Source of the DNA: an uncultured Bacteroidota bacterium | Lineage (GTDB): Bacteria; Bacteroidota; Bacteroidia; Bacteroidales; WCHB1-69 | Reading direction: 5' to 3' | DNA length: 64,000 bases | Assembly: GCA_942493315.1 (NCBI GenBank) | Contig: OW818690.1 | Coordinates: 2,759,275-2,823,274 of the forward strand | Part shown: piece by piece, positions 8,486 to 58,050 of the stretch | How the letters are laid out: every line of letters begins with the position of its first letter | Position numbering within the stretch: the first letter of the stretch is position 1 | The notes under the pieces: generated by a model | Seen by the model: the letters and a program-made list of their open reading frames with translations, nothing else | What the model was told of the DNA's origin: nothing | Database searches by the model: none | Program-made: the position numbers and the translations under genes

Positions 8486-8601
8486 TTTTTTCGAAAAGTT
8501 TAGTTAAATTAAAGTTATGATTTTCAAATGGTTATATTATTTTTAAATAATTTACAAATATACAAAATTTTTCCAAACGAAAAGCTTAAAATCTATTAAA
8601 T

Positions 8602-8702
8602 AATTAGCAAATGTGATAATTAGCAAATGTGATAATTTGCTAATTTGCTAATTTACTAATTTGCTAATTTGCTAATTTGCTAATTCACTAATTTGCTAAT
8701 TC
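8602..8702. repeat. Octamer tandem array (TGCTAATT x ~9) preceded by 2 copies of a 16-mer containing its reverse complement
   Basis: Read directly. AATTAGCAAATGTGAT occurs twice, followed by TGCTAATT units. Lies 117-217 nt upstream of the gyrA start on the minus strand. Confidence 0.9.
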
Positions 8703-9086: not shown

Positions 9087-9174
9087 ATTATTTTTTATTT
9101 AGATTGAGTTCAAAAAAGTTTGCAAAATTATCAAAAAAAAGTGTGATTTTGATTATTTTTTTAATTTTTTATTT

Positions 9175-9354
9175 GGGCATTCCGGCACCATCCGACACAC
9201 GAGCATACCCTGGTGCCGTCGGGCTTGTTCCGGGGTCCGCTTCGCTCCCGTACTTCGCTGCACTTCACTTAGGATCATTAGTTTCATCTCGCTAACTCAT
9301 CACGGCGTTCGTTCCAGCTCGTACCACCTCCGGTGCCCTCCACATCCCTAATGC
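9175..9354 (+). repeat. GC-rich structured element, copy D (most divergent)
   Basis: Starts GGGCATTCC and ends CCCTAATGC like the other copies. Internal stem CGGCACCA...TGGTGCCG. GC-rich in an AT-rich context. Track ORF 9104-9295 lies inside it and is judged spurious. Confidence 0.75.
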
Positions 9355-9410
9355 AATGAAAATCTGCCCCAAATTTATCCGCTGGGGGGTAATATTTCAT
9401 ATTCTAATAT

Positions 9411-12601: not shown

Positions 12602-12602
12602 A

Positions 12603-12730
12603 GACTACGGACTACGGACTACGGACTACAGACTACGGACTACAGACTACGGACTACAGACTACGGACTACAGACTACAGACTACGGACTACAGACTACA
12701 GACTACGGACTACAGACTACGGACTACAGA
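12603..12730. repeat. Heptamer tandem array GACTACG/GACTACA (~18 units)
   Basis: Read directly. Starts 2 nt after the stop codon of the EEP gene. Confidence 0.95.
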
Positions 12731-12744
12731 CATTTATCTTTAAT

Positions 12745-12938
12745 CACCTGTCCCCTGTCCCCTGTCACCTGTTACCTGTTACCTGTTACCTGTTACCTGT
12801 CACCTGTTACCTGTTACCTGTTACCTGTTACCTGTCACCTGTCCCCTGTCACCTGTTACCTGTTACCTGTCCCCTGTCACCTGTCCCCTGTCACCTGTTA
12901 CCTGTTACCTGTCCCCTGTTACCTGTCACCTGTCCCCT
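12745..12938. repeat. Heptamer tandem array CCTGTCA/CCTGTTA/CCTGTCC (~27 units)
   Basis: Read directly. Ends 2 nt before the stop codon (12941-12943) of the minus-strand 1404-aa gene. Confidence 0.95.
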
Positions 12939-17155: not shown

Positions 17156-17198
17156 TGAACAACAATTTTTTAGTAAAAAGATTGCAAAGATACGAAAT

Positions 17199-17288
17199 AA
17201 TGTGCTAATGTGCTAATGTGCTAATGTGCTAATGTGTTAATGTGCTAATGTGCTAATGTGCTAATGTGACAATGTGATAATGTAATAA
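17199..17288. repeat. Octamer tandem array AATGTGCT (~11 units)
   Basis: Read directly. Lies 44-133 nt upstream of the start of the glycogen fusion gene (minus strand). Shares the ATTAGCA core with the array upstream of gyrA. Confidence 0.9.
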
Positions 17289-17375
17289 TTTGCTAATTTT
17301 CTCAATGTGCTCTTTAGCTTGCTAATGTAAAAATTAATAAGAGGATACATTATATTGTATTTCTTTATGTAAATT

Positions 17376-28338: not shown

Positions 28339-28460
28339 TCAGCTTTCAGCTATCAGTTTTCAGCTATCAGTTTTCAGCTTTCAGTTTTCTAATGGTCAAC
28401 CAAATTCAGGCATTGACACATTATTCATTATTCATTATTCATTATTCATTATTCATTAAT
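28339..28460. repeat. Two heptamer arrays: CAGCTTT/CAGCTAT/CAGTTTT (28339-28389) and TTATTCA (28420-28460)
   Basis: Read directly. The CAGCTAT/CAGTTTT units recur at 54609-54635, and the reverse complement of TTATTCA recurs at 29070-29100. Confidence 0.9.
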
Positions 28461-28492
28461 TTATTATCTTTGCAATCTAAAAATTAGAAATT

Positions 28493-29018: not shown

Positions 29019-29102
29019 AGACTACGGACTACGGACTACGGACTACGGACTACGGACAACGGACGAAAAATGAATAATGAAAAATGAATAATGGGAAATG
29101 AG
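29019..29102. repeat. Heptamer arrays GACTACG (x6, ending GGACAAC) followed by TGAATAA/TGAAAAA units
   Basis: Read directly. Same GACTACG unit as at 12603-12730. Confidence 0.9.
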
Positions 29103-33711: not shown

Positions 33712-35085
33712 ATGATTATAAATAGTATCATCAGGTTTTTTCATACAGATAATGAACTAACCATCAATAAATTAGGCAAATTTACTAAAAAACATATTGC
33801 ATCGCAATTGGAAGGTGGTCAAATTTTTCCACCTAAGGTTATTTTAGAGTTTGAATATAATGAAGATATCAATGGGTTTTCGTTTGTTGATAAAATATCT
33901 CAATGGGAGTCACTTCGGTTATTAGATGCTGATGATCAAGTTACTAAATGGGTAAAAGAATTAAAAAACGCCATTCAAAATAACAAAAGTGTTAGTTTTG
34001 AGAATTTTGGAACATTCTATATGAATCCAACCGGGGTTATTTGTTTTGATTCTGATATCATCAAGGAATTGAACAGTGAATATTACGGTATGGCACCGGT
34101 TCCGTTGAATAAGACGGGAGACGGGAGACAGGAGACGGGAGACGGGGGAATTCAGATTACGGACAACGGACTACAGACTATGGACGAGGGTATTCAGACT
34201 GCGGACAACGGACTACAGACTACGGACGAGGGTATTCAGACTGCGGACAACGGACTACAGACTACGGACGGGGGACTGGAGACTGGAGACGAGGGAGTAC
34301 AGACTGCGGACAACGGACTACAGACTACGGACGAGAGACTGGAGACGGGAGACGGGAGACAGGAGATTGGAGACGGGAGACAGGAGACGGGAGACGGGAG
34401 ACAGGAGACGGGAGACGGGAGACGTGAGATTGAGGACGACGGACTACAGACTACGGAAGAGGTTGAGGAAGAAGAAAAAGAAGAGGTTTTTATGCCGGTT
34501 AAAAAGAGAAAAAATAGATGGTTGGAGAGGCTCATTTTTATTTTGATTATTTTGGGATCAATCGGATTGGTTGCTTATCTTTTTAGATCTGATATAAAAA
34601 AATTCTATGATCAAAAATTTAATAAAAATAATCAGGTGGAAACCCCTACCCCTCAAGCTGTTGCGGTTGATACAAATATGGATGAATATATTGACTATGA
34701 AGCAGATTCTTTAGAAAATTCAAACTCTGCTACTAATACTTCAGAAGAGATTACTAATCCAACAGTTTCTAAAGTTGAGACAACAAAAAATTCAAATAAT
34801 TCCAATACAACAACAAAACCTGTTCAAATTGAAACAAATCAAAATGGAAGTAAAGATATTTCCTCCATTTCATTTGAAAAAGGGAAATTTTATGTTATTG
34901 CAGGTAGCTTTGGTAAAAAAAGTGATGCGATACAACATATCAAAGACAAAAAGTTAACACAATACAATCCTGTTCTTCTGGTTGGAGATTCAAGAGTCAG
35001 AGTTTGTATTGGAACCTATAAAACAGAAGCTGAAGCAACTGCTTTTGCTAAAAAAATTGATCAATCCTTTTGGGTATTAAAATAG
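33712..35085 (+). CDS. HU-like N-terminal domain / TM / SPOR-domain protein with an internal repeat-encoded low-complexity region
   Basis: C-terminal SPOR-like domain (GKFYVIAGSFGKKSDAIQHI...VRVCIGTYKTEAEATAFAKKI). Central TM segment (LIFILIILGSIGLVAYL). The Gly/Asp/Thr/Gln-rich region is encoded by heptamer repeats. Confidence 0.7.
   Translation: MIINSIIRFFHTDNELTINKLGKFTKKHIASQLEGGQIFPPKVILEFEYNEDINGFSFVDKISQWESLRLLDADDQVTKWVKELKNAIQNNKSVSFENFGTFYMNPTGVICFDSDIIKELNSEYYGMAPVPLNKTGDGRQETGDGGIQITDNGLQTMDEGIQTADNGLQTTDEGIQTADNGLQTTDGGLETGDEGVQTADNGLQTTDERLETGDGRQEIGDGRQETGDGRQETGDGRREIEDDGLQTTEEVEEEEKEEVFMPVKKRKNRWLERLIFILIILGSIGLVAYLFRSDIKKFYDQKFNKNNQVETPTPQAVAVDTNMDEYIDYEADSLENSNSATNTSEEITNPTVSKVETTKNSNNSNTTTKPVQIETNQNGSKDISSISFEKGKFYVIAGSFGKKSDAIQHIKDKKLTQYNPVLLVGDSRVRVCIGTYKTEAEATAFAKKIDQSFWVLK
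34113..34456 (+). repeat. Heptamer tandem repeats (GGAGACG, GGACTAC, AGACTAC and others) embedded in frame within a CDS
   Basis: Read directly. The units match the intergenic arrays at 12603 and 29019. The translation shows 7-aa periodic strings (GDGRQET, DNGLQTT). Confidence 0.9.
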
Positions 35086-37200: not shown

Positions 37201-38758
37201 CCGACGGAGCACTCATTGGGTAATCTAATAAATGATGGGTAAAAAATTTAGTAAATTGTTTATTCATTGAAAGATATGAAATCTACTGATTTTGCATCCT
37301 TGTTTCACCAACCTTTTAATAGATTACCTAAATGAAAACCCAAATTTGAAATCTATCACCCATTTGACAACTCCAAAATCAAACCAAATTCTAAATTTAG
37401 CTCCTCTAAAATTAATCCAAATCTTCCTAAAATCAATCAGACTTTAGCTACAAACAAACCAATATTACCATTTTTAAATTAAATGGTTTTTTAATAACTT
37501 ATAAGATTATTTATTGTTTATACAAACATTTTGCAATGTTTGTAGTTTTCTTTCCCATTGTTGATTGAGATCGATTTTTCAATCATAGCAGATGAGGGAT
37601 CTAATCTGAATTTGATCTGTTCAAAGATCATATACCAATACAGATAGTTTTGCAGATAACTGGAGGATACTCCATGAAACCGATCCATAAATGCAATTAA
37701 CTTCAGGTATCTGCTTTCAATCGTTTTTGTATCATAATATTGGTTACATCCTTTCACTTTCTGATCCTTTTTTCTAATAAAGTAGCTGATCTTTCTCTTT
37801 CCTGCAAATTGTTTAAGAATCGGATGATCACTCAAACATAGTTTTTTTACTTTGTTTAGTTTTTTTCCAAGATGGTTCTTTAATTCTTCTTCTTGTAATG
37901 CACCTTGTTGAATAATTGTGATTTCAAAATGGGATATTCTGTCACCAATAGCCACTAAAGAAAGAGGTTTGTATTCCCCATTTCGGATACTTTCTGCTTT
38001 TCTATTACAGGCAGGATTCGTTATCTTTCCTTTTTGTCCTATTTGTTTAGCTTTGGCTCCTTGACCCTTTCGGGAGAAAGGTTCTGAAATATCAATCATT
38101 TCCGTTATTCCTCGATATTTATCCGGGACATATTCACCCAGAGAGGATATAATTTTATGTCTCCAATCAAATGAAGTTTGGTTAGAGATATCCAATGCAT
38201 CAGAACAATCTTTGATTCCTGTTCCTGATAACATCAACAAGAAGTAGGATTGTAGTTTCTCCTTCTTTTTGATGTAGGAAATTGTAGTACCTGAGAACTC
38301 ATTAAAGCTTCTGCCACAACTCTTACAAAGGAAATATTGAACTCCTTTTTTCTTACCGTTTAGAATAAAATGTGATTTTCCACATTTAGGACAAACTCTG
38401 ACTTGCTTCTCACTGATATACTTACATATAGAAGCCAAAGGATTAACAAAACTCTTTTTTTGGGGGGTAACTTCAGCAGATGGTGAGGGTTGAACTGAAG
38501 TAGGGTCAATGGTTTGCTTAGAGGATTGGGGTAGATCATTCATAGTATTTTGAGTTTAGTGAGTACTTGATATTGATGCAAATATAAACAAAAAAATGAA
38601 CGAATTGCAACAAAAATAAAAAAAAATCTGCTAATCTAATAAAAGATTGGTGCTATTGTGATGCAAAATCACAAGACTATAAAAAAGTGTTTAAAATCAA
38701 AAATATACCGAAAAACTCACCCATCTTTTAATAGATTAGCCAATTAAAGCTCCGTCGG
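37201..38758 (-). mobile_element. IS-like unit: IS1595-like transposase gene bracketed by inverted AT-hairpin modules of about 130 bp (M6 37201-37328, M7 38630-38758)
   Basis: The outermost 10 bp are perfectly inverted (CCGACGGAGC ... GCTCCGTCGG), followed by an extended imperfect inverted repeat through ATTGG-TAATCTA-TAAA-GATGGGT. No target-site duplication was recognised. Confidence 0.55.
37518..38543 (-). CDS. IS1595-family-like DDE transposase with an N-terminal zinc ribbon
   Basis: CPKCG...x18...CKSCG zinc ribbon. C-terminal HGVSSSYLQNYLYWYMIFE resembles the IS1595 (ISXO2-like) conserved end. A TATATTTG -7 box lies on the minus strand at 38579-38586. Confidence 0.6.
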   Translation of the reverse strand: MNDLPQSSKQTIDPTSVQPSPSAEVTPQKKSFVNPLASICKYISEKQVRVCPKCGKSHFILNGKKKGVQYFLCKSCGRSFNEFSGTTISYIKKKEKLQSYFLLMLSGTGIKDCSDALDISNQTSFDWRHKIISSLGEYVPDKYRGITEMIDISEPFSRKGQGAKAKQIGQKGKITNPACNRKAESIRNGEYKPLSLVAIGDRISHFEITIIQQGALQEEELKNHLGKKLNKVKKLCLSDHPILKQFAGKRKISYFIRKKDQKVKGCNQYYDTKTIESRYLKLIAFMDRFHGVSSSYLQNYLYWYMIFEQIKFRLDPSSAMIEKSISINNGKENYKHCKMFV

Positions 38759-38771
38759 ACAGTAAACCCCC

Positions 38772-38981
38772 GCATTAGGGCGAAGGCCAGGTACCCCGCA
38801 AGTTGAGCTGCTTAGGGCCTGACGGATCGGGCAGAGCGACGAAGGAGCTACTGCCCGGCCGATCAGACCCTTGCAGCGAAACGAGGAGTACAGGCCGGAG
38901 ACCGACCCTTTGGCCAGCGACGCGACTATTATTCATATTGGTCTGGATTTTTATTGAGCGCAGCCAAAGGGGAATGCCCTA
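38772..38981 (-). repeat. GC-rich structured element, copy C (reverse orientation)
   Basis: The reverse complement aligns along its length with copy A (47564-47770). It has the same CCTTTGGC...GCCAAAGG stem and a compensated CGGGCAG...CTGCCCG hairpin. Confidence 0.85.
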
Positions 38982-38999
38982 AATAACTAAATTTGAAAT

Positions 39000-40818: not shown

Positions 40819-40857
40819 ATTCTTTTTTTAGAGTATGCAAAAATACATTTTTTTTTG

Positions 40858-40865
40858 TAATTTTG
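40858..40865 (+). promoter_or_regulatory. -7 promoter box TAATTTTG driving the riboswitch leader
   Basis: TAnnTTTG located 3 nt before the proposed P1 stem of the riboswitch. Confidence 0.45.
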
Positions 40866-40868
40866 CCA

Positions 40869-41050
40869 TGATTTTCAACAAGGGAATCGGGTGAAATTCC
40901 TGAACAGTTCCCGCTGCTGTAAGTCTCATTAAGTTCTTAGGATTTAGCCACTGTTTTTATTCCAAAAATGGGAAGGCCCTCAAGAGAGACAAGTCAGAAA
41001 ACCTATTGTAAATCAAGCATTAAGGCTTCGGGAAAAAGCTGAAACGAACC
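40869..41050 (+). promoter_or_regulatory. Cobalamin (B12) riboswitch
   Basis: AAGGGAATCGGGTGAAATTCCTGAACAGTTCCCGCTGCTGTAAG matches the conserved GGGAA..GGTGAAA.TCC...CCCGC.GCTGTAA core. Also GCCACTG...GGGAAGGC, a B12-box-like AAGTCAGAAAACCT, and a P1 candidate TGATTT (40869-40874) / AAATCA (41010-41015). Confidence 0.75.
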
Positions 41051-47512: not shown

Positions 47513-47563
47513 CACATTAACACTTTAGCATATTACTATTCACTATTAGTTATTCACTCTATA

Positions 47564-47770
47564 GGGCATTCCCCTTTGGCTGCGCTCAACCAAACCCCCA
47601 CCCCAACGAACAGAAACACCGTCGCTTGCCAAAGGGTCGGTCTCCGGCCTGTACTCCTCGCAGTTCCGCCAAGTGTTGCATCGGCCCGGCAGGAGCTCCT
47701 CCGTCGCTCTGCCGGTCTCGGCACCACTAAGCGTCCCTGCTTGCGGGGTACCTGGCCTCCGCCCTAATGC
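47564..47770 (+). repeat. GC-rich structured element, copy A
   Basis: GGGCATTCC...CCGCCCTAATGC. Stems CCTTTGGC/GCCAAAGG and CCGGCAG/CTGCCGG. Track ORF 47576-47767 lies entirely within it and is judged spurious. Confidence 0.85.
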
Positions 47771-47815
47771 AATTTCAGTAAGTGGTTAATATTTCAATTC
47801 GCCCCAAAACTTTAT

Positions 47816-52313: not shown

Positions 52314-54209
52314 TCAGACACAACTAGGCAACGTGAAGTAAAATGTTGACCCTACCCCTTCTTCACTTTCTATCCAAATTCTGCCCCCATATTGTTCAAT
52401 AAATTCTTTACAGAGTATTAATCCTAAACCTGTTCCTTTTTCGTTTTGTGTTCCTTTAACGGTGAAATTTTCTTCAATTTTGAACATCCTTAACTGATCA
52501 GCTTTACTGATGCCTATACCAGTATCCCTAACCAAAAGAACAAGTTCATTGTCCAGTTTTTCTGTCAAAATGGTTATTTTACCTCCCGGATTAGTAAATT
52601 TTAGGGCATTCGAAATCAAATTTCGTAATATGGTGCCCATCATTGATTGATCTGCATGAATAGTAATTTCTTGATCTATTGTATTTATAATCTGAATTGA
52701 TTTTTGAGATGCTGCATCATTCAATAATAGAATGGTTTCAGTTAAAAGTTCATTTAGTGAAAAATCAATAGCAATAAACTCCATTTTTCCGGTTTGTAAT
52801 CGGGCCCAATCCAAAAGATTTGTCAATAAATCAAAAGTCCTTTGTGATGAGTTTTGGATGATAACGGCATATTCTTCCATATTTTCATAATTTTTATCCC
52901 GGATCTGTTCAGTTAATAGTTCACTAAACCCCATAATGGCATTAAATGGACTTCTAAGATCGTGGGCAATAATGGAAAAAAATTTATCTTTCGTATTGTT
53001 CAGATGATTTAATTTTAGGTTTAATTCTGATATCTCTTCCGTTTTATGCATCAATTGAGTATTTGTCCTAGATTTTAATCTATAGAATGAATACAACACT
53101 ATGGAAACTATAATCATTAAAATAGCAATGAAAATAGCTATTTTAGTATTTATCTTAGATATCCGTATCTCACTTTCTTTTTTTAAATTCAATTCCTTTA
53201 GTTGATGATCATATTCATGTTTTGCTTCAATATAAGCAATTGATTTTATGTTACTTTCGTTTCGCATTGTATCTGATAATTCAAAGAATTTGGTTCTGTA
53301 TTTCAATGCATTTTCATAATCTTTAATACTCAGATATGCTTTTGCAATCAGATCAGTTGCTTCCAAAACAATGTATCTACTTCCAATCGATTCTCCGATT
53401 TTATTCGCTTTTTGGGCAAAATTCAATGCATCAGAATAGTTTTTGATATTCATCAAAAAATCAGCATATTGGTTGTATGCCATAGCCGTTAAATTCGGAT
53501 TTTCAAGTTTTTGGAATATTTTTATACTTTCTTGAATTTGGATTTGAGCACTATCTAATTTATTGAGTTTAATAAAACATTTTCCTATAGATAAATAATT
53601 ATATCCCATTAACATTAAGTTATTTTCACTTTTCGCAAAATAATAACTTTTGTAATGATTCTCAATGGATTTATTGAAATCACCATTTTCAAATTCAATT
53701 AATGCCAGATTGTGTAATAATCGGGACATCTCTGTGTTATTTTTTATCTTGTTTGCAATTTCTAAACCTTGCAGTATATAACTTTTTGCCTTTGAAAATT
53801 GATTTCTGGCATAATAAACCAAACCAATATTATTATACGTTTTAGAAAGTAAAATGGGTTCGTTTAATTCTTTAAATATCGATATGGCTTTCAGATTATT
53901 ATCCAATGAAGCATCATAAATACCCATTCGGTAATAATTGATTCCTAATGCTTTATGTGCTTCTCCAATTCCCAACTTGTAATTTAATTTCTTTGCTAAG
54001 GCTAATGCATTATTGGCATAATACAATCCTTTTCCGGTATCAAAATCTTTTAATTCATCAGCTAATCTATTCATTAAATTAACTTTAGCTGTATCATCAG
54101 CCATAGTTTTAATTTTGATAGTATCGATCAATACATCAGCATTTGCATCAAAACAGATCAAGATTGCTATTACAGTAAAAAAAACAAATAATTTTCTTTT
54201 AAATTTCAT
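52314..54209 (-). CDS. TPR-repeat sensor histidine kinase
   Basis: N-terminal signal/TM, multiple TPR units and a TM segment. HisKA H-box FFSIIAHDLRSPFNAI. HATPase N/G boxes (NLISNALKFT, DTGIGI, GTGLGL). ATG 54209 is preferred to the TTG at 54221. Confidence 0.85.
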   Translation of the reverse strand: MKFKRKLFVFFTVIAILICFDANADVLIDTIKIKTMADDTAKVNLMNRLADELKDFDTGKGLYYANNALALAKKLNYKLGIGEAHKALGINYYRMGIYDASLDNNLKAISIFKELNEPILLSKTYNNIGLVYYARNQFSKAKSYILQGLEIANKIKNNTEMSRLLHNLALIEFENGDFNKSIENHYKSYYFAKSENNLMLMGYNYLSIGKCFIKLNKLDSAQIQIQESIKIFQKLENPNLTAMAYNQYADFLMNIKNYSDALNFAQKANKIGESIGSRYIVLEATDLIAKAYLSIKDYENALKYRTKFFELSDTMRNESNIKSIAYIEAKHEYDHQLKELNLKKESEIRISKINTKIAIFIAILMIIVSIVLYSFYRLKSRTNTQLMHKTEEISELNLKLNHLNNTKDKFFSIIAHDLRSPFNAIMGFSELLTEQIRDKNYENMEEYAVIIQNSSQRTFDLLTNLLDWARLQTGKMEFIAIDFSLNELLTETILLLNDAASQKSIQIINTIDQEITIHADQSMMGTILRNLISNALKFTNPGGKITILTEKLDNELVLLVRDTGIGISKADQLRMFKIEENFTVKGTQNEKGTGLGLILCKEFIEQYGGRIWIESEEGVGSTFYFTLPSCV

Positions 54210-54280
54210 TTGTTGTATCAATTTATGGATGCAAATATACCAAATAATTTATGAATATATTAAAAGTAAATATTTTTTTA

Positions 54281-54341
54281 GGTTTTGGGTTTTGGGTTAT
54301 GAGTTTTGGGTCTTGGGTTTTGGGTCTTGGGTTTTGGGTTA
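54281..54341. repeat. Heptamer array GGTTTTG/GGTCTTG (~9 units)
   Basis: Read directly. Its reverse complement (CCCAAGACCCAAAACCC) occurs at 57952-57969 on the other side of the island. Confidence 0.9.
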
Positions 54342-54387
54342 TTGCATAAAAAATTAATATCTAAAACCTTAAAACTAATATCTTTTT

Positions 54388-54567
54388 GGGCATTCCGGCA
54401 CCATCCCACCCACTTTCCTACCCTGCTGCCGTCGGTCTCCGGCCTGTACTCCTCGCAGTACCGCCAAGTGTTGCATCGGCCCGGCAGTAGCTCCCAAGGT
54501 CGCTCTGCCGGTCTCGTGCACCACTAGGCGTCCCTGCTTGCGGGGTACCTGACCTCCGCCCTAATGC
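54388..54567 (+). repeat. GC-rich structured element, copy B
   Basis: GGGCATTCCGGCA...TGCCGTCGGTCTCCGGCCTGTACTCCTCGCAG...CCGGCAG-TAGCTCCCAAGGTCGCT-CTGCCGG...CCGCCCTAATGC. Confidence 0.85.
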
Positions 54568-54571
54568 TTCT

Positions 54572-54692
54572 CGGGCTCAGGGCTCAGGGCGAAAGGCCAA
54601 GGGCTATCAGCTATCAGTTTTCAGCTATCAGTTTTGCATTTTGCTTATTTAGTGGCTGTTGTCTGTGGTCTGTAGTCCGTAGACCGTTGTCC
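54572..54692. repeat. Mixed short tandem repeats (GGGCTCA, CAGCTAT/CAGTTTT, and the complement of GACTACR)
   Basis: Read directly. Track ORF 54564-54824 is a translation of repeats and is judged spurious. Confidence 0.8.
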
Positions 54693-54700
54693 AAAATTGA

Positions 54701-54930
54701 GGAACGTTATATTTGTAGCAAATCAACCTCCGACAACTCCAACCCGCTCCGTAGGAGCGTTATATTTGTAGCCAATCAACCTCCGACAAAACCACTTCGC
54801 TCCAGCGGAGCGTTATATTTGTAGCCAAACAAATACCCGACAAAACCACTTCGCTCCAGCGGAGCGTTATATTTGTAGGCAAACGATTACCCGACAAAAC
54901 GATCCCGCTCCAGCGGAGCGTTATATTTGT
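54701..54930 (-). repeat. REP-like 53-54 bp hairpin units, ~4 copies, inverted relative to the downstream array
   Basis: Four CGCTCC-N3/4-GGAGCG hairpins, each followed by TTATATTTGTAG. The reverse complement matches the CAAATATAACGCTCCGCTGGAGCG units at 57170-57600. Confidence 0.9.
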
Positions 54931-54972
54931 TTTTTTTATTTCAAAAATTATGAATAATTAAAATAATTTCAC

Positions 54973-54980
54973 TATTTTTG
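54973..54980 (+). promoter_or_regulatory. -7 promoter box TATTTTTG upstream of the Y1 transposase gene
   Basis: TAnnTTTG, 26 nt before ATG 55006. Confidence 0.45.
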
Positions 54981-55005
54981 CTTCACTCTCTTAAAACTAA
55001 TTATT

Positions 55006-55476
55006 ATGGCTAACACTTACTCTCAATGCTATTTTCACCTTGTTTTTTCTCCTAACATTTCAAAATCATTAATTGATACATCTTGGAGCAATAATCTAGA
55101 AATTTTCATTACATCAATTGTTCAGGAAAATGTACATAAAATGATTGCCATTAAATGTATGCCTGATCATGTTCATATCTTTTTTGGATATAATTTGAAT
55201 CAAAAAATACCTGATTTGGTTAATGTCATTAAAATGACTTCTTCAAAATGGTTGAAAGAACAAAATTTTTGTAAAAACTCATTTAATTGGCAAAATGGGT
55301 ATGGTGCTTTTACTCATGTAAAATCTTCTGTTAATGATGTTTATAATTACATTATGAATCAAGAAAATCACCATAAAAAAATAAGTTTTAAAGAAGAATT
55401 TTTATCATTTTTAAAAAGAAATGAAATTGATTATCACGATGATTATTTATTCCATTTTTTAGACCCTAAGTTTTAA
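55006..55476 (+). CDS. IS200/IS605-type Y1 (HUH) transposase, REP-associated (RAYT-like)
   Basis: HUH motif in MPDHVHIFF. WQNGYGAFT. C-terminal catalytic Tyr helix SSVNDVYNYIMNQENHH (Y-I-x-N-Q). 156 aa. No tnpB partner. Flanked by inverted hairpin repeats. Confidence 0.85.
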   Translation: MANTYSQCYFHLVFSPNISKSLIDTSWSNNLEIFITSIVQENVHKMIAIKCMPDHVHIFFGYNLNQKIPDLVNVIKMTSSKWLKEQNFCKNSFNWQNGYGAFTHVKSSVNDVYNYIMNQENHHKKISFKEEFLSFLKRNEIDYHDDYLFHFLDPKF

Positions 55477-55485
55477 TTCCAAAAA

Positions 55486-57635
55486 CCAATTTAACGCTCC
55501 GATGGAGCGGGTTCGTTTTGTCCGTTATTTGTTTGCTACCAATTTAACGCTCCGATGGAGCGGGTTCGTTTTGTCCGTTATTTGTTTGCTACCAATTTAA
55601 CGCTCCGCTGGAGCGGGTTCGTGTCGCCGGTTATTCGTTTGCTACCAATATAACGCTCCGCTGGAGCGGGTTCGTGTCGTCCGTTATTTGTTTGCTACCA
55701 ATATAACGCTCCGATGGAGCGGGTTCGTTTTGTCCGTTATTCGTTCGCTACAAATATAACGCTCCGCTGGAGCGGGTTCGTGTCGACCGTTATTCGTTCG
55801 CTACCAATTTAACGCTCCGCTGGAGCGGGTTCGTTTTGTCCGTTATTTGTTTGCTACCAATTTAACGCTCCGATGGAGCGGGTTCGTTTCGCCTGTTATT
55901 TGTTTGCTACCAATTTAACGCTCCGCTGGAGCGGGTTCGTTTTGTCCGTTATTTGTTTGCTACCAATTTAACGCTCCGTTGGAGCGGGTTCGTGTCGCCG
56001 GTTATTCGTTTGCTACCAATATAACGCTCCGCTGGAGCGGGTTCGTGTCGCCGGTTATTCGTTCGCTACCAATTTAACGCTCCGCTGGAGCGGGTTCGTT
56101 TCGCCGGTTATTCGTTCGCTACCAATTTAACGCTCCGCTGGAGCGGGTTCGTTTTGTCCGTTATTTGTTTGCTACCAATTTAACGCTCCGTTGGAGCGGG
56201 TTCGTGTCGCCGGTTATTCGTTCGCTACCAATATAACGCTCCGCTGGAGCGGGTTCGTTTTGTCCGTTATTCGTTCGCTACAAATTTAACGCTCCGATGG
56301 AGCGGGTTCGTTTTGTCCGTTATTTGTTTGCTACCAATTTAACGCTCCGCTGGAGCGGGTTCGTGTCGCCGGTTATTCGTTTGCTACCAATTTAACGCTC
56401 CGATGGAGCGGGTTCGTTTTGTCCGTTATTTGTTTGCTACCAATTTAACGCTCCGATGGAGCGGGTTCGTTTCGCCTGTTATTTGTTTGCTACCAATTTA
56501 ACGCTCCGCTGGAGCGGGTTCGTTTCGCCGGTTATTCGTTCGCTACCAATTTAACGCTCCGCTGGAGCGGGTTCGTTTCGCCGGTTATTCGTTCGCTACC
56601 AATTTAACGCTCCGCTGGAGCGGGTTCGTTTTGTCCGTTATTTGTTTGCTACCAATTTAACGCTCCGATGGAGCGGGTTCGTTTTGTCCGTTATTTGTTT
56701 GCTACCAATTTAACGCTCCGATGGAGCGGGTTCGTGTCGCCGGTTATTCGTTTGCTACCAATTTAACGCTCAGATGGAGCGGGTTCGTGTCGCCGGTTAT
56801 TCGTTCGCTACCAATTTAACGCTCAGATGGAGCGGGTTCGTTTCGCCGGTTATTCGTTTGCTACCAATATAACGCTCCGCTGGAGCGGGTTCGTGTCGTC
56901 CGTTATTTGTTTGCTACCAATTTAACGCTCCGCTGGAGCGGGTTCGTGTCGTCCGTTATTTGTTTGCTACCAATTTAACGCTCAGATGGAGCGGGTTCGT
57001 TTTGTCCGTTATTCGTTCGTTACCAATATAACGCTCAGATGGAGCGGGTTCGTTTTGTTCGTTATTCGTTCGCTACCAATTTAACGCTCCGCTGGAGCGG
57101 GTTCGTTTTGTCCGTTATTCGTTCGCTACCAATTTAACGCTCCGCTGGAGCGGGTTCGTTTTGTCCGTTATTCGTTCGCTACAAATATAACGCTCCGCTG
57201 GAGCGGGTTCGTTTCGCAGGTTATTCGTTTGCTACCAATATAACGCTCCGCTGGAGCGGGTTCGTGTCGTCCGTTATTCGTTTGCTACAAATATAACGCT
57301 CCGCTGGAGCGAGTATGTTTTGTCCGTTATTCGTTTGCTACAAATATAACGCTCCGCTGGAGCGAGTATGTTTTGTCCGTTATTCGTTTGCTACAAATAT
57401 AACGCTCCGCTTGAGCGGGTTCGTGTCGTCCGTTATTCGTTTGCTACAAATATAACGCTCCGCTGGAGCGAGTATGTTTTGTCCGTTATTCGTTTGCTAC
57501 AAATATAACGCTCCGCTGGAGCGAGTATGTTTTGTCCGTTATTCGTTTGCTACAAATATAACGCTCCGCTGGAGCGAGTATGTTTTGTCCGTTATTCGTT
57601 TGCTACAAATATAACGCTCCGATATAGAGGGTTAC
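55486..57635 (+). repeat. Tandem array of ~40 REP-like 53-bp hairpin units
   Basis: The period is exactly 53 bp by counting (ACCAATTTAACGCTCCGCTGGAGCGGGTTCGTTTTGTCCGTTATTTGTTTGCT). Each unit has a CGCTCC-N4-GGAGCG hairpin. There are several unit subtypes. The last 7 or so units include five copies of a distinct GAGCGAGTATG variant, interrupted by one GGGTTCGTG-type unit. Confidence 0.97.
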
Positions 57636-57711
57636 ATCGAACTTCTAATATCTAACTTCTCCAGTCACCAGTCTCTCGTCCCTTGTCCTAAACAAAACCG
57701 CAGGTTTTGTT

Positions 57712-57874
57712 GCGTTAGGACGGAGCCGAGAAAGCCCGCAAAGGAGGAAGCCGATGTGATGCAGGGAGGAAAAGAGCGAACTTGTGAGCTCCTTTTACGA
57801 CCATGCAGTCACACGGCTTACGACTGCGGACTTGAAGGCGGAGACCGACGGCGAGCCTGCGAGCCGGAACGCCC
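57712..57874 (-). repeat. GC-rich structured element, copy F (reverse orientation, divergent)
   Basis: The reverse complement begins GGGCGTTCCGGC and ends CCGTCCTAACGC, and shares GTCGGTCTCCG and the AGCTC...TTCGCT loop. Track ORF 57756-57938 lies on it and is judged spurious. Confidence 0.75.
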
Positions 57875-57880
57875 AAAAAA

Positions 57881-57969
57881 GACTAAAGACAAAGGACGAA
57901 GGACAAAAGTCAAATTAAAAATGAAAAATGAAAAATGAAAAATGAGAAAAACCCAAGACCCAAAACCCA
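57881..57969. repeat. Short tandem repeats (AAGGACR units, AAAAATG x4, CCCAAGA/CCCAAAA)
   Basis: Read directly. Confidence 0.85.
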
Positions 57970-58042
57970 GAAATTAATTCCGTGAATAGTGCGTATTGAT
58001 ATTTTTATATACTTAGATGGGGAATAATTCACCATTTTTTCG

Positions 58043-58050
58043 TAATTTTG
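58043..58050 (+). promoter_or_regulatory. -7 promoter box TAATTTTG upstream of thrS
   Basis: TAnnTTTG followed by CAAA, 26 nt before ATG 58076. Confidence 0.5.

Follow-up and report, generated by a model that had tools for sequence, protein, structure and literature searches.

The window analysed here, a stretch of 64,000 nucleotides of contig OW818690.1 from an uncultured Bacteroidota bacterium (GenBank assembly GCA_942493315.1, positions 2,759,275 to 2,823,274 of the forward strand), contains a gene for a 156-residue Y1 HUH transposase (55006..55476, + strand) that lies between two mutually inverted tandem arrays of one short hairpin element. The locus is interpreted as a REPtron-like module, i.e., an intact and selectively maintained Y1 transposase bracketed by inverted arrays of its cognate REP-like (repetitive extragenic palindrome) element, in which growth of the arrays by the enzyme is favoured; the probability of this reading is put at roughly two in three.

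Tandem arrays were called with Tandem Repeats Finder (TRF), and the units were then cut in register. The upstream array (54701..54930, - strand) has a period of 54 bp with 4.3 copies and 87% matches, and all four of its hairpins are perfect. The downstream array (55485..57604, + strand) consists of 40 full head-to-tail units of 53 bp that fall into 24 distinct types; TRF places it at 55485-57621 (period 53, 40.3 copies, 92% matches, 0% indels, score 3203). Because a truncated 41st unit with a head and a degenerate hairpin (CGCTCC GAT ATAGAG) starts at 57605 (57605..57629, + strand), the array ends at approximately 57623-57629 and not at 57635, the end given in the first-pass annotation of this DNA. 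The annotation had described a TnpA-type Y1 gene without tnpB between about 4 upstream and about 40 downstream hairpin units in opposite orientation, and that arrangement is upheld, whereas its period of 53 bp applies to the downstream array only.

Each unit is composed of the head CTACAAATATAA, a GC hairpin whose stem measures 6 bp and whose loop measures 3 nt (4 nt had first been proposed), and a linker of about 26 nt. The downstream unit can be written as the head ACMAATWTAA, the hairpin CGCTCC-N3-GGAGCG, and a 26-nt linker, where the loop is GCT, GAT, GTT or TAC. The stem, which had been thought perfect over 6 bp in every unit, is so in the whole upstream array and in 35 of the 40 downstream units; the other five carry CGCTCA (four units) or TGAGCG (one unit). 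With at most one mismatch allowed, TAACGCTCCNNNGGAGCG has 44 matches in the window, every one within the locus, and none was expected from 100 shuffles. Going outward from the gene, each array opens with ACAAATATAACGCTCC and closes in a truncated unit. The GAGCGAGTATG variant is found in five of the final six downstream units, in agreement with its earlier description as confined to the array end. The folding energy is modest relative to shuffled sequences (z of +0.2 to -2.8 for single units and -1.15 for a three-unit fold). Since thermodynamic support for the hairpin is weak when taken alone, the case for it rests on the compensatory stem variants described below.

At the outer junction of the upstream array (54690..54716, - strand), the truncated terminal unit, which retains the head and the left stem arm CGTTCC, is followed by TCAATTTTGGA. 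This type of junction is identical in the related locus L060 and near-identical in L012 (ACAATTTTGG). In the window (54690-54700), in L060 (approximately 1615-1625), and in L008 (4453-4462 and 4908-4917), one array ends in a truncated unit and TCAATTTT comes next, its counterpart in L012 being ACAATTTT; the same order holds in a lineage with a 57%-identical protein and a different repeat sequence.

The unit, for which a search of the complete genome had been suggested in the first-pass annotation, forms a true REP-like family that is dispersed among related Bacteroidota. A strict 22-nt pattern of head plus hairpin, AATWTAACGCTCCNNNGGAGCG, was scanned over one genome per species and yielded 53 loci, almost exclusively in Bacteroidota metagenome-assembled genomes (MAGs), four of which have about 6-12 contigs each with the pattern. 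The units occur there in runs of one (31 cases), two (14), three (4), four (1) and five (1), which are arranged head to tail with the 53-bp period kept, and an array of 9.9 units is present in Chitinophaga vietnamensis. Four perfectly complementary stem types were observed, namely CGCTCC/GGAGCG (50), CGCCAC/GTGGCG (14), CGCTGC/GCAGCG (7), and CGCTAC/GTAGCG (2), which indicates that the hairpin is conserved through compensatory change. In five MAGs of Chitinophagaceae (L013, L017, L029, L042, and L050), the same head-plus-hairpin unit recurs every 0.2-1.4 kb (mostly at about 0.8-1.3 kb) in one orientation on single contigs, and its flanks are conserved on both sides, which suggests that these units are embedded in a larger repeated cassette.

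The transposase matches Pfam Y1_Tnp with 84.7 bits (E 7e-24). The HUH motif is D54-H55-V-H57, followed by W95-Q96 and by Y115-x3-Q119-x2-H122-H123, in which the tyrosine motif reads YIMNQENHH. The residues D54, H55, H57, W95, Q96, Y115, Q119, H122, and H123 are invariant in an alignment of 24 homologues, and the C-terminal tail (F128..F151) is conserved among the aligned homologues. Neither a tnpB-like open reading frame near the gene nor a second transposase copy within the window was found. The NCBIfam IS200 model NF033573 gives 61.5 bits, above its cut-off of 55, whereas the REP_Tyr_transpos model NF047646 gives 26.4 bits, far below its cut-off of 80. The closest relatives of the family profile in the Protein Data Bank (PDB) are ISDra2, IS608, and archaeal TnpA; among the 10 PDB matches listed at E<=10 there is no REP-associated transposase chain, and all are IS200/IS605-type TnpA except two unrelated proteins.

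TnpA-Y1 subclass 1.2 was defined by the motifs Y---Q--HH, DH[IV]H, and WQ, a length of about 150 residues, and a conserved C-terminal domain of about 30 residues; it is IS200-like and low-copy, occurs in Bacteroidetes and Cyanobacteria, and has no recorded REPs (Quentin et al. 2018, BMC Genomics 19:475, PMC6006769). Judged by its sequence, the window protein fits this subclass, since its motifs, its length, and its conserved C-terminal tail match the definition. Membership in class 2, the REP-associated tyrosine transposases (RAYT, or TnpAREP), was rejected, as the curated model failed and the tyrosine motif is not of the YIxxNP type; the RAYT identity proposed in the first-pass annotation is thus replaced by subclass 1.2.

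The dN/dS ratio of 0.12-0.16 relative to three relatives shows that the gene is under purifying selection. Among the best 120 homologues, those with a name are nearly all from Bacteroidales or relatives, and most homologue clusters are found on few contigs. Plasmid homologues are limited to 2 of 72,556 records, both of which are Bacteroidota megaplasmids. The AT-rich leader of the gene (54931..55005, + strand) contains a Bacteroidetes-type -7 box (consensus TAnnTTTG), TATTTTTG, at 54973-54980, a motif that L060, L001, and L150 also keep ahead of the gene. A sigma-70 promoter scan, whose model is ill-suited to Bacteroidota, gave three sites against 6.4 expected.

The association of gene and repeat was surveyed in 80 gene-centred metagenomic loci with homologues of 39-58% identity, where a unit was defined as a YTAYAAA head plus a perfect GC hairpin. 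At least one such unit lies within 400 bp of the gene in 42 of the 80 loci, and units are found on both sides in 23. Unit density is 1.68/kb near the gene and 0.027/kb beyond 1.5 kb, a 62-fold enrichment. Downstream of the gene 42 of 53 units are on the + strand (11 on the - strand), and upstream 35 of 44 are on the - strand (9 on the + strand), so that the inverted flanking arrangement seen in the window mostly prevails. The stems vary by lineage (GCTGC, GCGGC, CCGTTCC, TGCCCC, and GGTGC, among others), whereas the head persists, and approximately 30 of the 80 loci have TRF-detectable arrays, mainly of 49-54-bp units. The same pattern is present in the cultured isolates Paludibacter propionicigenes WB4, which has inverted modules of two plus two units, Mangrovibacterium marinum, and Bernardetia sp.

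The long array is peculiar to the lineage of the window. Relatives with 74-85% protein identity hold 4.3 + 4.3 units (L060), 4 units (L149), 2 + 3 units (L150), 1 + 2 units (L005), and 3 + 1 units (L001). As these relatives have one to four units per side, the 40-copy array is attributed to a lineage-specific local expansion, in line with the tandem amplification suggested earlier. The possibility that contigs encoding the 83%-identical protein simply end at an unresolved array was ruled out, since one downstream unit is followed by unique DNA and the contig ends differ. Array length was also compared across assemblies, as had been proposed: in the 57%-identical lineage (P0007; L006 compared with L007-L011), the downstream array has 8.5 units in one assembly and 22.5 units in five independent assemblies, next to an identical protein, which indicates that such arrays are real and length-variable. 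They constitute hypervariable loci and are likely break points in short-read assemblies.

Although tandem repeats of 2.1 kb are error-prone in assemblies, an assembly artefact is a very improbable origin of the window array. Its 24 unit types occur in a non-periodic order between unique flanks on both sides, and a 1.1-kb array of the same architecture was reproduced in the five independent metagenome assemblies mentioned above.

The composition of the array bears on how it grew. Sixteen variable sites, most of which are biallelic, combine into the 24 unit types. Higher-order periodicity is absent from the 40 units, and there is local similarity only: units differ by 4.0 mismatches at lag 1 and by approximately 5.5 at long lags, six adjacent pairs are identical, a WWXWWW block stands at the end, and the CGCTCA variant appears in a two-by-two pattern. 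This mosaic agrees with local duplication that was repeated and accompanied by exchange between units. It fits equally well with replication slippage or unequal homologous recombination, by which a minisatellite seeded by a short REP array would have reached 40 copies without participation of the transposase, and the 0% indels reported by TRF are as expected for in-register recombination. Growth of this kind is also in keeping with L024, in which an array of about 10 units has no transposase gene within 8 kb and which shows that arrays can grow away from the gene. Nevertheless, slippage alone is insufficient for a period of about 49-54 bp in lineages with unrelated linkers; the start of the arrays at the head and their end at or just after the hairpin suggest site specificity; and the largest arrays observed are adjacent to the gene, although this last point is a weak one in a gene-centred survey. 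Growth without the enzyme is regarded as a serious contender, but as unlikely on balance.

We lean to involvement of the enzyme because the period of about 50-54 bp recurs with unrelated linkers, because the array boundaries are placed with respect to head and hairpin, and because, by analogy, E. coli TnpAREP can assemble tandem BIMEs (bacterial interspersed mosaic elements) by strand transfer (PMC3333891). The core of the element is the conserved CTACAAATATAA head followed by the short GC hairpin with its 3-nt loop, and within arrays the linker of about 26 nt completes the 53-bp period. By comparison with IS608 TnpA and E. coli TnpAREP, the enzyme is predicted to bind the folded hairpin on single-stranded DNA (ssDNA) and to cut at or near the conserved head. 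Cleavage at equivalent sites of neighbouring units and subsequent strand transfer may excise unit-length ssDNA circles, which would then be re-inserted; alternatively, units may be added by a rolling circle, as has been modelled for BIMEs. The array would in this way have grown from about 4 units to 40 in the lineage of the window, and recombination among the units would then homogenise it.

Several rearrangements were observed at these loci. When a conserved outer junction, made up of the truncated unit, TCAATTTTGGA, and CTACRGA heptamers, is taken as the reference, the gene and its leader have opposite orientations in the window (54690-55476) and in three relatives (L060 1600-2340, L012 4830-5380, and L036), an outcome that recombination between inverted arrays would produce. 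One assembly of the P0007 lineage has two tandem gene copies (L007 5287-6480), and in the same lineage there is an upstream duplication of a 455-bp module that combines 24-bp repeats with 4.4 units. Foreign insertion sequences (ISs) lie in or beside the modules of three relatives (L031 590-2400, L005 6928-9239, and L150 970-3260); they are of the IS21 and IS66 types by Pfam, with one putative IS4-like open reading frame recognised from its sequence alone, and one of the insertions disrupts the gene.

Certain observations weigh against a REPtron-like module. In addition to the low score with the REP_Tyr_transpos model, the gene-less array of L024, and a mosaic that speaks as much for recombination, further copies of the unit were looked for in the ~60 kb of the window that lie outside the locus, and none was found. 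Moreover, one MAG contains two REP-gene-REP modules that are 95% identical over only 680 bp and have the look of an IS, which implies that the gene and its flanking repeats can be copied together. These two modules, the pass with the NCBIfam IS200 equivalog model, and the position of IS transposases as nearest structures would all suit an ordinary IS200-type insertion sequence in which the hairpins are the left and right ends (LE/RE), with the long array as a satellite of separate origin that is its neighbour by chance. This explanation is held to be quite improbable. The array units are the same element as the flanking hairpins, and the flanking units are inverted, not direct like the ends of IS200/IS605 elements. 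In related MAGs the units far outnumber the genes and also occur without one. Furthermore, subclass 1.2 is low-copy (PMC6006769), purifying selection is evident across lineages with well-diverged synonymous sites, and homologues are nearly absent from plasmids.

The arrays have properties that might instead point to a host or regulatory role. A scan found 93 terminator-like sites where 6.7 were expected, and each unit scores as a weak terminator whichever strand is read, a mild argument against extended read-through beyond the gene. The complement of the head, TTATATTTGTAG, contains TAnnTTTG, the -7 promoter consensus of Bacteroidetes; five copies are in the upstream array (+ strand) and ten in the downstream array (- strand), all of them facing the gene. 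The strand of TTATATTTGTAG is terminator-like because it reads as a hairpin plus a T-rich tail.

Both arrays are also the 3' flanks of two convergent GC-rich elements, a part of the locus that the first-pass annotation had missed. The GC-rich structured element of about 185 nt, which is abundant and previously undescribed, has a GC content of approximately 58-65% in a window of 34% GC, and its ends are conserved (GGGCRTTCC...CCCTAATGC). One copy (54385..54583, + strand) scores 96.6 bits (E 9e-19) with covariance model R1, and the upstream array is found 118 bp 3' of it; the convergent copy (57696..57877, - strand), which was used to build the model, scores 190.5 bits and has the 40-unit array on its 3' side at a distance of 75 bp. 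With the further copies at 47561-47786 (+), 38756-38982 (-), and 9172-9370 (+), there are five in the window. Its consensus fold takes the form of a long rod that carries a side hairpin, in which 19 of the 56 pairs show compensatory changes, and since G-U pairs are conserved on just one of the strands, the element is most readily explained as a structured RNA or ssDNA element. Neither the arrays nor these GC-rich flanks match Rfam at the gathering threshold over the whole window or at E<=1 over 54200-58050. Of 72 REP clusters in other genomes (loci L012-L064), 22 have a GC-rich element at a distance of 450 bp or less; without exception these 22 occupy its 3' side, and 18 of them are antiparallel to it. 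The element is absent beside 83 other homologous loci, which makes it a lineage-specific partner of the arrays and not of the enzyme family; its candidacy as a general partner of that family was accordingly rejected.

On this evidence, the arrays could be kept as a stack of bidirectional terminators, as an insulator for the GC-rich structured RNA, or as a sink that titrates the transposase, and the terminator-like sites, the promoter-like motifs directed toward the gene, and the constant position and prevailing orientation of the clusters relative to the GC-rich element are consistent with such functions. However, close relatives manage with one to four units, so 40 copies are not a conserved requirement, and the GC-rich element is missing next to homologues in other lineages; a host role as the reason for the arrays is therefore considered improbable. 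A bolder extension of the preferred REPtron-like reading would make subclass 1.2 a second, independently domesticated REP-mobilising lineage that produces rapidly length-variable "REP satellites" by adding and removing unit-length ssDNA circles within head-to-tail arrays, with the arrays functionally coupled to the ~185-nt structured element in a three-part system of enzyme, array, and element; this scheme is speculative, and we regard it as doubtful.

Heptamer repeats sit between the GC-rich elements and the arrays. On the upstream side, TCAGCTA/TCAGTTT repeats followed by CTGTNGT-type repeats were identified by TRF and from the sequence (54607..54689), and homologous stretches are found in L060. 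On the downstream side (57630..57695), the alignment shows degenerate heptamers and then a hairpin that belongs to the GC-rich element and resembles a terminator (minus strand, AACAAAACC-TGC-GGTTTTGTT). Tandem arrays of 7-bp (some 8-bp) repeats with differing units are present at 8601-8701, 12602-12938, 17198-17311, 28339-28467, 29020-29101, 34112-34429, 54276-54340, 54607-54635, and 57912-57949, and several of them flank GC-rich elements. Heptamer repeats have been reported in some Bacteroidetes and Cyanobacteria (PMC4679880). The enzyme was rejected as their generator, since heptamer density around the 80 homologous genes is 0.04/kb near the gene and 0.07/kb far from it. The sole Rfam match in the window is a cobalamin riboswitch (40841-41024, + strand, 84.4 bits), which is unrelated to the transposase locus.

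Tandem amplification next to such a gene has precedents. In Proteobacteria, RAYT genes are flanked by inverted REPs and one third of them are directly associated with BIMEs; REPs also form head-tail dimers or are reiterated in tandem, variable numbers of tandem BIMEs surround tnpAREP of E. coli, and for the tandem REP/BIME clusters beside RAYT genes both strain-to-strain copy variation and models of transposase-driven amplification have been described (PMC3333891, PMC2817692, PMC3733652). Assembly of tandem BIMEs by TnpAREP strand transfer, with circle excision and integration and rolling-circle amplification as models, was presented for E. coli by Ton-Hoang et al. (PMC3333891). Because amplification of this kind was already known, the organisation in the window is a variant and not unprecedented, contrary to the earlier view that it differed from anything described. 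In the searchable literature, no description was found of such a one-orientation array beside a subclass 1.2 enzyme.

Like the REPtrons formed by RAYT/TnpAREP and REP/BIME, e.g., E. coli yafM (Nunvar 2010, Ton-Hoang 2012, Bertels & Rainey 2011), the locus has an apparently low-copy Y1 HUH gene between inverted GC-rich palindromes, its palindrome is dispersed (here in related MAGs) and co-varies with the protein lineage, and tandem clusters of strain-variable copy number adjoin the gene. On the other hand, the enzyme belongs to class 1 (IS200-like) and not to class 2, the units are head to tail in one orientation whereas BIMEs alternate, and the short hairpin has a perfect stem of 5-7 bp and a 3-nt loop. 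The head CTACAAA precedes the stem by 5 nt here and by 2-9 nt in other lineages, while REPtrons have GTAG at the foot of the stem, and the copies per genome apparently number in the tens rather than the hundreds, with an array of up to 40 units.

The locus shares with the IS200/IS605 TnpA proteins (IS608 and ISDra2), its closest relatives in sequence and structure, the HUH and single-tyrosine chemistry and, as predicted for the window enzyme, recognition of subterminal ssDNA hairpins. It differs from those elements in that tnpB is lacking, in that the flanking units are one inverted element and not differing direct LE/RE ends, and in the low copy number of the gene beside gene-less units that are dispersed in related MAGs, two similar modules having been seen in one case only. 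REPINs (Bertels & Rainey 2011) and the head-tail dimers or tandem clusters of REPs known from Pseudomonas and Thauera (Di Nocera 2013) are likewise short non-autonomous palindromes that are thought to be mobilised in trans and for which tandem reiteration has been noted, but the window has direct arrays, with the period fixed at 53 bp, as its basic repeated form and not the inverted doublet of REPINs. With subclass 1.2 as described, the enzyme has in common Y---Q--HH, DH[IV]H, WQ, about 150 residues, the conserved C-terminal tail, low copy number, and occurrence in Bacteroidetes; the gene is distinguished from that description by flanking units of head plus hairpin, here and in the 42 of 80 homologous loci.

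What sets the locus apart from these cases is the combination of a class 1 subclass 1.2 enzyme, a distal CTACAAA head with a short perfect hairpin, a single orientation, and the size of the array. A simple 40-unit array beside its candidate enzyme, with relatives that hold one to four units, offers a clean natural test of growth by the enzyme versus growth by recombination. The comparison widens the reach of REP/RAYT-type partnerships, in which a domesticated ssDNA transposase is paired with a dispersed hairpin repeat, to include Bacteroidota and an IS200-like subclass that had been listed without an associated repeat.

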